Below the pieces are notes generated by a model. It saw only the letters and a list, made by a program, of their open reading frames with translations, ran no database searches and was not told where the DNA came from. Position numbers and translations under genes: made by a program. A DNA stretch of 64,000 nucleotides from Escherichia coli (GTDB lineage Bacteria > Pseudomonadota > Gammaproteobacteria > Enterobacterales > Enterobacteriaceae): NCBI RefSeq assembly GCF_044324785.1, contig NZ_CP172127.1; one strand, given 5' to 3'. Shown in pieces: positions 34,983-46,996 of the stretch. Within the stretch, counting starts at the first letter, position 1, and every line of letters begins with the position of its first letter.

Positions 34983-35303
34983 TCAGGCTTTTTCTAGCGT
35001 ACACAGCAATGGATGCTCATTCTCCCTCGCGTACTTGTTCACCATCGCCACTTTGGTTTCTGCAACCTCGGCGGTAAAGACTCCGCAAATGGCCTTCCCC
35101 TGGTAGTGAACAGCGAGCATCAATTGCGTTGCACGTTCTACATCATAAGAAAAGAATTTTTGTAACACGTCAATAACAAACTCCATCGGAGTGTAATCAT
35201 CATTGACTAATATCACTTTATACATAGATGGCGGTTTTAGCGCGTCGCGAACTTTTTCTTCCGCCAGTTGATCAAAGTCCAGCCAGTCGTTCGTTTTACC
35301 CAT
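34983..35303 (-). CDS. clpS: ClpS adaptor protein
   Basis: 106 aa [47 protein letters not shown]... Confidence 0.97.
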
Positions 35304-41743: not shown

Positions 41744-42168
41744 ATCCCCTCCAGAAATATGTGACTTATCCTTTACGCTGGCAGTATAACGGGAAAGGCC
41801 TTACTAATACGTGATGACATCACATTTAAGCATGGCAAATGTCTGAAAAATGAGCGAATAATCGCGTTATACTCCCTCTTGCTGATAAGCCTGCAAAAAC
41901 AACAAAATCAAATAATTAGCATGATAAATTATTTTTTATTACGCCTAAAGGATTAAATCTTTCGCTTGCACTACACTGTCAATCAGACAAATGACTATAT
42001 GGGGCAACCCGCTGTTGCCCTAAATCAAATTTACTGGATTTATTTATCTGGCGAATGATTTGCCTTCGTTTTTAAAATAGCCGCGCATTATTTCCGTCGT
42101 CACTTTTTTACGACGACCCTATAAAACGACCATATTTTTCACAGGGTCAATTTTTAATTGAGGTGGAT

Positions 42169-42864: not shown

Positions 42865-43320
42865 TTAGCATTGGCATTTTATCTGCCCTGGTTGTTTTAT
42901 CTTCGACGTTACAAACCGCACGGGTGTTGGTGGCGTCAAAATCGCTGAAGCGTTCCCCGAAGGCCGGGGCAGCCCACATGGATGTGGGCTGAGGGCGCGT
43001 CTTACAGGACGTTACCTCGCGCCCGACCCGGTAGCCGAAGGGGATAAGCTGAAGGCACCGCGCAGCGGCGATTTTGTTCGCCAGAGCCCGGGGGTGCAGG
43101 GGGCGGCGGCGACTGGCCGCCCCCTGCGCGCTCCCTGCGCCAGTGGCTTTATATGGCATTGCACATGAAAGGAGCGCAACAATGCTAAACACTCATATAG
43201 AATTAAAAATCCCCCTCTGATGCATAACATTTCCTTTTAATTGCAACTTTACTCGTCCTTCCGCTTTCAGTAGTGTGTCATCGCGCATTTCGACTTCATC
43301 TTTGCAAGGACTGGGTTTTC

Positions 43321-44220
43321 ATGTTTTCTGGGCTGTTAATCATTCTGGTTCCCCTGATTGTGGGTTACCTCATTCCGCTTCGCCAAAAAGCTGCATTAAA
43401 AGTTATTAATCAGCTATTAAGCTGGATGGTTTACCTTATTCTCTTTTTTATGGGTATCAGTCTGGCGTTTCTCGATAACCTCGCCAGTAACCTGTTGGCG
43501 ATTCTGCATTATTCTGCCGTCAGTATTACCGTTATTTTACTGTGTAATATTGCCGCCCTTATGTGGCTGGAGCGAGGCCTGCCATGGCGCAACTACCACC
43601 AGCAAGAAAAACTCCCGTCGCGTATTGCGATGGCGCTGGAGTCGCTAAAACTGTGCGGCGTAGTAGTGATTGGTTTTGCCATTGGCCTGAGTGGACTGGC
43701 TTTCTTACAACATGCGACCGAAGCCAGTGAATACACCTTAATTCTGCTACTTTTCCTCGTCGGTATTCAGTTGCGCAATAATGGCATGACCTTAAAGCAG
43801 ATTGTCCTTAATCGCCGGGGAATGATTGTCGCCGTGGTGGTGGTTGCCAGTTCATTAATTGGTGGTTTAATTAACGCCTTTATTCTTGATCTTCCCATCA
43901 ATACCGCGCTGGCAATGGCCTCCGGTTTCGGCTGGTATTCTCTTTCCGGTATTTTATTGACCGAATCTTTTGGTCCGGTAATCGGGAGCGCGGCGTTTTT
44001 TAATGATCTGGCCCGTGAGCTGATTGCAATTATGTTGATCCCTGGGCTGATTCGCCGCAGCCGCTCTACCGCACTGGGCTTATGCGGTGCGACGTCGATG
44101 GATTTCACCCTGCCCGTTCTTCAACGTACTGGCGGGCTGGATATGGTCCCGGCGGCAATTGTTCACGGTTTTATTCTTAGCCTGTTAGTGCCGATCCTCA
44201 TCGCCTTTTTCTCTGCATAA
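43321..44220 (+). CDS. ybjE: Lysine exporter LysO (YbjE)
   Basis: 299-aa membrane protein from MFSGLLIILVPLIVGYLIPL... Confidence 0.9.
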   Translation: MFSGLLIILVPLIVGYLIPLRQKAALKVINQLLSWMVYLILFFMGISLAFLDNLASNLLAILHYSAVSITVILLCNIAALMWLERGLPWRNYHQQEKLPSRIAMALESLKLCGVVVIGFAIGLSGLAFLQHATEASEYTLILLLFLVGIQLRNNGMTLKQIVLNRRGMIVAVVVVASSLIGGLINAFILDLPINTALAMASGFGWYSLSGILLTESFGPVIGSAAFFNDLARELIAIMLIPGLIRRSRSTALGLCGATSMDFTLPVLQRTGGLDMVPAAIVHGFILSLLVPILIAFFSA

Positions 44221-44253
44221 TACCTCTCTGGCGGTAGATCCCTGCCGCCAAAA

Positions 44254-44267
44254 TTGCGCTAAATCAA
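44254..44267 (+). promoter_or_regulatory. Putative FNR-type site (TTGCG-N4-ATCAA) in hcp promoter region
   Basis: Half-site ATCAA is perfect and TTGCG is partial; about 100 nt upstream of hcp. An NsrR-like AT-rich inverted repeat lies at about 44327-44349. Confidence 0.4.
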
Positions 44268-44363
44268 TCTCCCTTAAAGTTGCATAAAAAATCCCTTTTA
44301 TCCCCGCGTTAAGCGTCTTAACCTTAAACATGTATATTAAATATAACTTTAAAAGGTGTGATC

Positions 44364-46016
44364 ATGTTTTGTGTGCAATGTGAACAAACTATCCGTACTC
44401 CGGCAGGAAACGGCTGCTCATACGCGCAGGGGATGTGTGGTAAAACGGCGGAAACCTCTGACCTTCAGGATTTACTCATCGCGGCGCTGCAAGGGCTTTC
44501 GGCCTGGGCGGTAAAAGCGCGTGAATACGGCATCATCAACCACGATATAGACAGCTTTGCGCCACGCGCATTTTTCTCAACCCTGACCAACGTTAACTTC
44601 GATTCTCCGCGTATTGTCGGCTACGCTCGTGAAGCAATTGCCCTGCGCGAGGCGCTGAAAGCACAATGCCTGGCTGTAGATGCCAACGCCCGCGTCGATA
44701 ACCCGATGGCTGACCTGCAACTGGTGAGCGATGATCTCGGCGAGCTGCAACGTCAGGCGGCAGAATTTACCCCTAACAAAGATAAAGCGGCGATTGGCGA
44801 AAACATTCTCGGCCTGCGTCTGCTGTGCCTGTATGGCCTGAAAGGTGCGGCGGCCTATATGGAACACGCGCATGTTCTCGGTCAATACGACAACGATATT
44901 TACGCCCAGTACCATAAAATCATGGCGTGGCTGGGAACCTGGCCTGCCGATATGAACGCGCTTCTTGAGTGTTCAATGGAAATCGGCCAGATGAACTTCA
45001 AAGTGATGAGCATTCTGGACGCAGGCGAAACCGGTAAATACGGTCACCCGACCCCAACCCAGGTCAACGTCAAAGCGACGGCAGGTAAATGCATTCTGAT
45101 TTCCGGTCACGATCTCAAAGATCTCTACAACCTGCTGGAACAGACCGAAGGCACGGGCGTTAATGTCTACACCCACGGTGAAATGCTGCCTGCGCATGGC
45201 TACCCGGAGCTGCGTAAATTCAAGCATCTGGTCGGTAACTACGGCAGCGGCTGGCAGAATCAGCAAGTGGAGTTCGCTCGTTTCCCTGGCCCCATCGTGA
45301 TGACCTCGAACTGCATCATCGACCCAACCGTAGGCGCTTATGACGATCGTATCTGGACCCGCAGTATCGTTGGCTGGCCGGGTGTGCGTCATCTGGATGG
45401 CGAAGATTTCTCTGCGGTCATCGCCCAGGCGCAACAAATGGCGGGCTTCCCGTACAGCGAAATTCCGCACCTGATCACCGTGGGCTTTGGTCGTCAAACG
45501 CTGCTTGGCGCAGCGGATACGCTGATTGACCTGGTAAGCCGTGAAAAACTGCGTCATATCTTCCTGCTTGGCGGCTGTGACGGCGCACGCGGCGAGCGTC
45601 ACTATTTCACCGATTTCGCCACCAGCGTGCCGGATGACTGTCTGATCCTGACTCTCGCCTGTGGTAAATATCGCTTTAACAAACTCGAGTTTGGCGATAT
45701 CGAAGGTCTGCCGCGTCTGGTAGATGCTGGTCAGTGTAACGATGCTTACTCAGCGATTATTCTGGCGGTAACGCTGGCAGAAAAACTGGGCTGCGGTGTC
45801 AACGATCTGCCGCTGTCGCTGGTGCTCTCGTGGTTTGAACAGAAAGCGATTGTCATTCTGCTGACACTGCTTTCTCTGGGTGTGAAAAATATCGTCACCG
45901 GCCCTACTGCACCAGGTTTCCTGACACCAGACCTGCTGGCGGTGCTGAACGAGAAATTCGGCCTGCGTTCTATCACCACTGTTGAAGAAGACATGAAGCA
46001 ACTGTTGAGCGCGTAA
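44364..46016 (+). CDS. hcp: Hybrid-cluster protein (hydroxylamine reductase) Hcp
   Basis: 550 aa from [31 protein letters not shown]... Confidence 0.95.
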
Positions 46017-46027
46017 GGAGTTTGTCG

Positions 46028-46996
46028 ATGACGATGCCAACGAATCAATGCCCGTGGCGGATGCAGGTTCATCACATCACGCAAGAAACGCCGGATGTGT
46101 GGACGATTTCCCTGATTTGCCACGATTACTACCCATATCGCGCCGGGCAATATGCACTGGTCAGCGTGCGAAACTCAGCGGAAACGCTGCGTGCTTACAC
46201 CATTTCCTCCACGCCAGGCGTCAGTGAATACATCACCCTGACTGTGCGGCGGATTGATGACGGTGTCGGCTCCCGGTGGCTGACGCGCGATGTAAAACGC
46301 GGTGATTATCTCTGGCTTTCGGACGCGATGGGGGAATTTACCTGCGACGATAAAGCAGAAGATAAATTCCTGTTGCTGGCGGCAGGCTGCGGCGTCACGC
46401 CGATTATGTCGATGCGTCGCTGGCTGGCGAAGAACCGTCCGCAGGCCGATGTGCAGGTGATCTACAACGTGCGTTCGCCGCAGGATGTTATTTTCGCCGA
46501 TGAGTGGCGCAACTATCCGGTGACGCTGGTGGCAGAAAATAACGTTACCGAAGGCTTTATCGCTGGTCGTCTCACTCGCGAACTGCTGACTCGCGTTCCT
46601 GACTTAGCTTCACGTACCGTGATGACCTGCGGCCCGGCTCCGTATATGGATTGGGTAGAGCAGGAAGTGAAAGCGCTCGGCGTGACGCGTTTCTTTAAAG
46701 AGAAATTCTTCACCCCAGTAGCGGAAGCGGCGACCAGCGGTCTGAAATTCACCAAACTGCAACCGGCACGAGAATTTTACGCCCCGGTTGGCACCACGCT
46801 ACTGGAGGCGCTGGAAAGCAATAAAGTTCCGGTTGTCGCCGCCTGCCGTGCAGGTGTTTGCGGCTGCTGTAAGACGAAAGTGGTTTCCGGTGAATATACG
46901 GTGAGCAGCACAATGACGCTGACCGACGCCGAAATCGCTGAAGGTTACGTGCTGGCCTGCTCCTGCCATCCGCAGGGAGATTTGGTTCTCGCATAA
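46028..46996 (+). CDS. hcr: Hcp NADH oxidoreductase Hcr
   Basis: 322 aa from MTMPTNQCPWRMQVHHITQETPDVW...; C-terminal 2Fe-2S cysteine cluster; AAGGAG RBS. Confidence 0.95.
   Translation: MTMPTNQCPWRMQVHHITQETPDVWTISLICHDYYPYRAGQYALVSVRNSAETLRAYTISSTPGVSEYITLTVRRIDDGVGSRWLTRDVKRGDYLWLSDAMGEFTCDDKAEDKFLLLAAGCGVTPIMSMRRWLAKNRPQADVQVIYNVRSPQDVIFADEWRNYPVTLVAENNVTEGFIAGRLTRELLTRVPDLASRTVMTCGPAPYMDWVEQEVKALGVTRFFKEKFFTPVAEAATSGLKFTKLQPAREFYAPVGTTLLEALESNKVPVVAACRAGVCGCCKTKVVSGEYTVSSTMTLTDAEIAEGYVLACSCHPQGDLVLA

Follow-up and report, generated by a model that had tools for sequence, protein, structure and literature searches.

Are the two short motifs upstream of hcp in this stretch of Escherichia coli DNA the sites through which FNR and NsrR control the hcp-hcr operon? 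The window, that is, the whole stretch of 64,000 nucleotides that was analysed, came with a preliminary description in which an FNR-like and an NsrR-like operator candidate had been pointed out in this promoter. We put at about 95% the probability that the locus is the well-characterised hcp-hcr promoter, with the first motif as FNR activator site and the second as NsrR operator. The finding holds, but it was already known, and the two sites are unchanged from those of K-12. In vivo occupancy and regulatory effect are taken from the literature, while the identity to K-12, the strength of the position weight matrix (PWM) matches and the conservation of sequence and spacing were computed here.

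The DNA is that of E. coli, and the segment from 44254 to 44349 falls within the 143-bp intergenic region between lysO, whose stop codon occupies 44218-44220, and hcp. A 301-bp query around the finding had matches in 5424 of 5426 complete E. coli genomes, every time between lysO (ybjE) and hcp. The gene order of the window (aqpZ, lysO, hcp, hcr, poxB) is that of K-12, on the opposite strand. The operon and its ribosome-binding region are placed as follows:

44364 to 46016, plus strand: hcp (hybrid cluster protein), 550 aa, an open reading frame named hcp in all the matching E. coli genomes.
46028 to 46996, plus strand: hcr (NADH oxidoreductase), second gene of the operon, an open reading frame with the order and the 11-nt hcp-hcr gap found in K-12.
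44353 to 44358, plus strand: Shine-Dalgarno region AAGGTG, which ends 5 nt 5' of the hcp ATG and is 70-99% conserved.

Both flagged strings are present, TTGCGCTAAATCAA at 44254-44267 and AACATGTATATTAAATATAACTT at 44327-44349, and the span under study runs from the first to the last base of the motifs. Over the whole lysO-hcp intergenic region the sole difference from K-12 MG1655 is at 44286 (A here, G in K-12), outside both of them; one additional difference from MG1655 affects the last lysO codon. The FNR box, the NsrR box and the distance between them are all identical to MG1655, so the displacement relative to the mapped K-12 sites that would have spoken against the preliminary description is absent from the alignment.

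The upstream motif is the following:

44254 to 44267, no strand assigned: FNR-binding site TTGCGCTAAATCAA, centre 44260.5 (-72.5), by identity to K-12, ChIP-seq (Myers 2013), PWM and conservation.

This box (TTGCG-CTAA-ATCAA) agrees with the consensus TTGAT-N4-ATCAA at 8 of 10 positions. The right half, ATCAA, is perfect and the left half, TTGCG, matches at 3/5, in accordance with the FNR-type spacing and single perfect half-site described earlier. We trained a PWM on 61 ChIP-bound K-12 sites (Myers 2013, Table S6), with hcp and aqpZ omitted, and obtained a score of 12.57 bits for the hcp box, which ranks fourth in the 64-kb window and stands at the 8th percentile of the 61 bound sites (range 11.6-20.8 bits). 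Hits of at least this score are expected by chance 1.6 times per 64 kb, which is not significant window-wide; within the 143-bp intergenic region alone, the expectation for hits of this quality is ca. 0.004. Nor is the window enriched in the loose pattern TTGN6ATCAA (5 seen vs. 3.8 expected).

Elsewhere in the window, FNR matches slightly above that of hcp are found at 35203-35216 (TTGACTAATATCAC, 13.1 bits) and 62150-62163 (GTGATTTGTGTCAA, 13.0 bits). The best match of all (13.6 bits) is the aqpZ box TTGCCCTAAATCAA, at 42015-42028, 141 nt 5' of the aqpZ ATG (42169).

The low score of the hcp box, the number of such hits expected by chance and the presence of a single perfect half-site would all fit another reading, namely that the box resembles an FNR site by chance, or serves a different member of the CRP/FNR family (e.g., CRP), and that the anaerobic control of hcp is indirect. 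Against this, the box ends in TTG...CAA, which is of FNR type, and not in the GTGA...TCAC of CRP, and the identical K-12 sequence lies under FNR ChIP-seq and ChIP-chip peaks, with FNR-dependent expression of the genes (Myers 2013, PMC3688515). The reverse complement of TTGCGCTAAATCAA, TTGATTTAGCGCAA, is the hcp FNR site given under the ChIP-seq peak (Table S6), the ChIP-seq/ChIP-chip peak at hcp is present in every data set of that study (Table S5), and hcp-hcr is classed as FNR-activated (Table S8), with the site located at -72.5 (Table 1, citing Filenko et al., 2005) (Myers 2013, PMC3688515). The hcp and aqpZ sites of Myers 2013 map to NC_000913.3 at one common offset, 777. In the same study sigma-70 gave no ChIP signal at hcp, and sigma-E dependence was cited (Myers 2013, PMC3688515); the lack of a sigma-70 signal may be explained by NsrR repression in nitrite-free medium. 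By sequence and PWM alone the hcp FNR box is not compelling, and its credibility comes from its position, its conservation and the published ChIP.

The second motif is the following:

44327 to 44349, no strand assigned: NsrR operator AACATGTATAT-T-AAATATAACTT, centre 44338 (about +6), covering -6 to +17, by identity to K-12, ChIP-seq (Mehta 2015), PWM and conservation.

The string AACATGTATATTAAATATAACTT is an 11-1-11 imperfect inverted repeat in which the arms agree at 7/11, and the earlier wording (an AT-rich imperfect inverted repeat upstream of hcp) was accurate. It consists of two inverted AAGATGCATTT-like half-sites of 11 bp, of 12.2-12.9 bits each, with a 1-bp spacer. For NsrR, the PWM was built from 25 of the 27 published 11-1-11 sites (Mehta 2015, Table 4), after removal of hcp and of one entry from an identical pair. 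The operator scored 24.95 bits, the highest value among the ca. 64,000 positions of the window and above 23 of the 25 training sites; a score of this size was attained in none of 200 dinucleotide-preserving shuffles of the window. The PWM scan that had been suggested as a check on the two motifs was therefore very strong for NsrR and modest for FNR.

This motif overlaps the start site that follows from the published location of the FNR site, which is compatible with repression. The same overlap, together with arms that match at 7/11 only, could be taken to mean that the AT-rich repeat is no NsrR operator but simply part of the start site and 5'-UTR of hcp, or else is bound by a nucleoid protein or by another member of the Rrf2 family (e.g., IscR). 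Such a reading is hard to reconcile with a motif that gives the top NsrR match in 64 kb with a matrix that had not been trained on hcp, or with the published data. The reverse complement of AACATGTATATTAAATATAACTT, AAGTTATATTTAATATACATGTT, is the ChIP-seq-positive hcp NsrR site (Table 4) and has the second-best score in the genome of CFT073, where hcp showed a 12-fold NsrR ChIP-seq enrichment and a 44-fold induction by nitrate (Mehta 2015, PMC5320621). The ChIP-seq summit was reported 22 nt 5' of the hcp start codon (Mehta 2015, PMC5320621), which in the window is 44342, inside the repeat. Besides, hcp is derepressed in nsrR mutants (PMC9052748, PMC2884951): Phcp::lacZ serves as a reporter for NsrR and NO (PMC9052748), and in a Salmonella nsrR mutant hcp was up 284-fold (PMC2884951). 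Both the FNR and the NsrR site of hcp had been predicted from eight enterobacteria (Rodionov et al., 2005, PMC1274295). The anaerobic and nitrosative-stress regulation that the preliminary description attached to the motifs holds as well, since they are the published hcp sites of FNR (Myers 2013, PMC3688515) and NsrR (Mehta 2015, PMC5320621).

The conservation of the two boxes bears on both of these rival readings. A scan for Hcp in species-representative genomes provided 80 Enterobacteriaceae loci, 78 of them with enough upstream sequence, and the counts are given over 79. Compared with the window, the FNR box has 99% identity across these species and 11 invariant columns out of 14; the NsrR box has 96% identity and 16 invariant columns out of 23, among them those of the ATG.AT and AT.TAAC cores. 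Identity falls to 56% in the 27 bp directly 5' of the NsrR box and is 69-75% in the other flanking segments. The two boxes are spaced at 73 nt in 76 of the 79 and at 72 nt in the remaining three, while the distance from the FNR centre to the hcp ATG varies by 11 nt across species (101.5-112.5 nt). A fixed distance between the boxes combined with a variable distance to the ATG points to a constraint on the geometry of the promoter and not on the distance to the gene. An FNR box that is kept while its flanks drift, at a fixed spacing from the NsrR box, is not what a chance match or a CRP site would lead one to expect, and we consider that reading highly improbable. The invariant cores of the repeat make it equally hard to believe that it is start-site sequence or a site for some other protein. 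We thus keep to an FNR site and an NsrR operator.

Within E. coli, a 34-mer containing the FNR box is found without change in 5318 of 5424 genomes and one containing the NsrR box in 5176 of 5424, and the variants of the NsrR box that were examined keep or improve its score (24.5 bits in UTAK-18, 26.2 bits in RMDEC465). On the side of FNR, 77 of the 79 species have the non-consensus half-site TTGCG (44254-44258) instead of the consensus TTGAT, TTGAG being present only in the two Superficieibacter genomes. From these alignments, the retention of TTGCG suggests selection for a weak, sub-optimal FNR site, or else an overlapping constraint.

The elements of the core promoter that would link the two sites are these:

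44296 to 44301, plus strand: predicted -35 hexamer TTTTAT, 17 bp 5' of the predicted -10, with T44296 and T44297 invariant in the 79 species.
44319 to 44324, plus strand: predicted -10 hexamer TAACCT, with T44319 at 100%, A44320 at >90% and T44324 at 100% in the 79 species.
44333, plus strand: implied transcription start, from the FNR centre at 44260.5 plus 72.5 (Myers 2013, Table 1, PMC3688515).

A scan of 44100-44450 for consensus sigma-70 promoters and terminators found nothing. As it detected no sigma-70-like pair of hexamers, we infer the core hexamers from conservation only. As expected, this null result fits an activator-dependent promoter, and for promoters of this kind such a scan is uninformative. 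A start near 44331-44333 would fit the conserved TAnnnT at 44319-44324. On this geometry, the centre of the NsrR site at hcp would lie near +6. A class II arrangement, with FNR at -41.5 and a start at ca. 44302, was discarded, there being no conserved -10-like element at the right distance. We also considered as an operator the perfect 6-3-6 palindrome GTTAAGcgtCTTAAC (44308-44322), between the predicted -35 and -10, and rejected it, since its left arm varies among species (identity 0-50%); the palindrome is probably fortuitous.

Activation by FNR and repression by NsrR is the established model of the hcp promoter, to which we add, by inference, the start coordinate, the hexamers and the steric mechanism. 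Under anaerobiosis, dimers of [4Fe-4S]-FNR would bind TTGCGCTAAATCAA, centred 72.5 bp 5' of the start at ca. 44333, and from this class I position would recruit RNA polymerase to the weak TTTTAT and TAACCT hexamers. [4Fe-4S]-NsrR bound at 44327-44349 would cover the start site and block initiation, presumably by steric hindrance. Nitrosylation of the NsrR cluster by NO (arising, e.g., from nitrite) would then take NsrR off the DNA and allow FNR-dependent transcription. A NarL/NarP 7-2-7 site just 3' of the lysO stop would be a probable input for nitrate and nitrite.

This last candidate shares its sequence with an RNA structure at the end of lysO:

44221 to 44236, no strand assigned: candidate NarL/NarP 7-2-7 site TACCTCT-ct-GGCGGTA, centre 44228.5 (-104.5 if the start is 44333).
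44229 to 44250, plus strand: lysO 3' RNA hairpin with a 9-bp stem (TGGCGGTAG/CTGCCGCCA) and the loop ATCC, by folding energy and covariation.

The NarL/NarP candidate matches 12 of the 14 positions of TACYYMT-N2-AKRRGTA (the left heptamer is perfect, the right one 5/7), a pattern that is not rare, with 7 instances seen in the window vs. 3.65 expected at up to 2 mismatches. Its left heptamer keeps the form TACyyCT in most of the 79 species, and the right one, GGCGGTA, doubles as left-arm sequence of the covarying hairpin. A position of -104.5 is reportedly that of NarL/NarP at the hcp promoter (Chismon et al., 2010), and the candidate would be this putative site.

The hairpin starts 9 nt 3' of the lysO stop codon, and there is no U-tract after its stem. 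Its folding energy is -16.5 kcal/mol (z = -3.9). Over 72 distinct Enterobacteriaceae sequences 97.4% of the cells are paired and three pairs show compensatory changes, values that were attained in none of 500 shuffles. A U.G pair that is frequent in the stem is possible on the plus strand only. It is probably a structure of the lysO 3' end. A scan of 44000-44600 against Rfam gave no family match.

A second NsrR-like element is found between the FNR box and the known operator:

44277 to 44299, no strand assigned: second NsrR-like 11-1-11 element AAGTTGCATAAAAAATCCCTTTT, centre 44288 (about -45), the second-ranking NsrR PWM match, which holds the polymorphic base 44286.

Its score of 19.3 bits, which is second in the window to that of the main operator, was attained in 3 of 200 shuffles, and it is placed exactly 50 bp 5' of the latter. 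The left half had been listed as a 'possible NsrR site' (Mehta 2015, Table 2, PMC5320621). At the homologous -45 position 34 of the 79 species reach 11.7 bits or more (Escherichia, Kluyvera, Klebsiella, Raoultella and Trabulsiella are among them), and 33 stay below 5 bits (among them Salmonella, Enterobacter and Leclercia); over 9,904 background positions the PWM never rose above 6.8 bits. From this distribution, the candidate site seems to have undergone repeated gain or loss among the Enterobacteriaceae. The sequence AAGTTGCAT is contained within it.

The one intergenic base at which the window departs from K-12 falls in this element, at position 10 of the upstream half-site AAGTTGCATnA. Among 5424 E. 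coli genomes the A of the window is present in 32 (0.6%) and T in 1121 (21%); the remaining genomes, roughly 78%, presumably have mostly G, the K-12 base. The predicted scores are 21.1 bits with T, 19.6 with A and 17.7 with G. The T allele is found in B2 strains such as NC101 and apparently also in CFT073, judging from the half-site printed in Mehta 2015 (PMC5320621).

There might thus be two NsrR operators at hcp, the known one at about +6 and another at about -45, over the -35 region, with a repression that would vary by lineage or with the allele at 44286. The rank of the element, an offset of 50 bp that is fixed in every species, scores far from the background in many of them, the published mention of its left half and the dependence of its score on the allele (T > A > G) all speak for a second operator. 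On the other side, the site is lost in Salmonella, Enterobacter and Leclercia, its conserved CCTTTT may partly belong to the -35 region, and two sites 50 bp apart are beyond the resolution of ChIP-seq. We regard a second operator as a tentative proposal, on balance rather doubtful. If it is functional, the set-point at which NO derepresses hcp would differ among lineages and strains.

Another NsrR-like 23-mer, ACATTTCCTTTTAATTGCAACTT, is found at 43227-43249, ca. 70-95 nt 5' of the lysO start, with 15 bits (rank 3). We did not retain it as a site, as chance alone would give 0.46 hits of this kind per 64 kb.

The strain therefore retains the canonical control of hcp-hcr by anaerobiosis and NO, an operon of defence against nitrosative stress, and nothing new on FNR or NsrR follows from the main finding. 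The side observations, i.e., the variable second NsrR-like site, the conserved sub-optimal FNR half-site and the overlap of the hairpin with the NarL/NarP candidate, have a modest value for promoter specialists and open no major question.

Among known systems, the ytfE operator of NsrR (AAGATGCATTTAAAATGCATCTT) shares both its 11-1-11 architecture and its regulator with the hcp operator, and is the only site that ranks above hcp in the scan of CFT073. It differs in being a near-perfect palindrome, while the arms of the hcp site have TGTAT/TATAA in place of TGCAT. For FNR, a comparable site is the aqpZ/ybjD intergenic one, with 13 of its 14 bases common to the hcp box and flanks that are unrelated to those of hcp. 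It is bound by FNR in K-12 by ChIP-seq (Tables S5, S6), with no FNR-dependent expression change reported (Table S9) (Myers 2013, PMC3688515). A preprint on hcp in Bacteroides (2026, bioRxiv) is irrelevant here, as the regulator there is HcpR, different from NsrR and FNR. The system to which this promoter really corresponds is the hcp-hcr promoter of K-12 (Filenko et al., 2005/2007; Chismon et al., 2010), at the same locus (lysO-hcp-hcr-poxB), with the FNR box, the NsrR operator, their spacing and the candidate NarL/NarP site all identical, the base at 44286 (A in the window, G in K-12) being the only difference in the 143-bp intergenic region.
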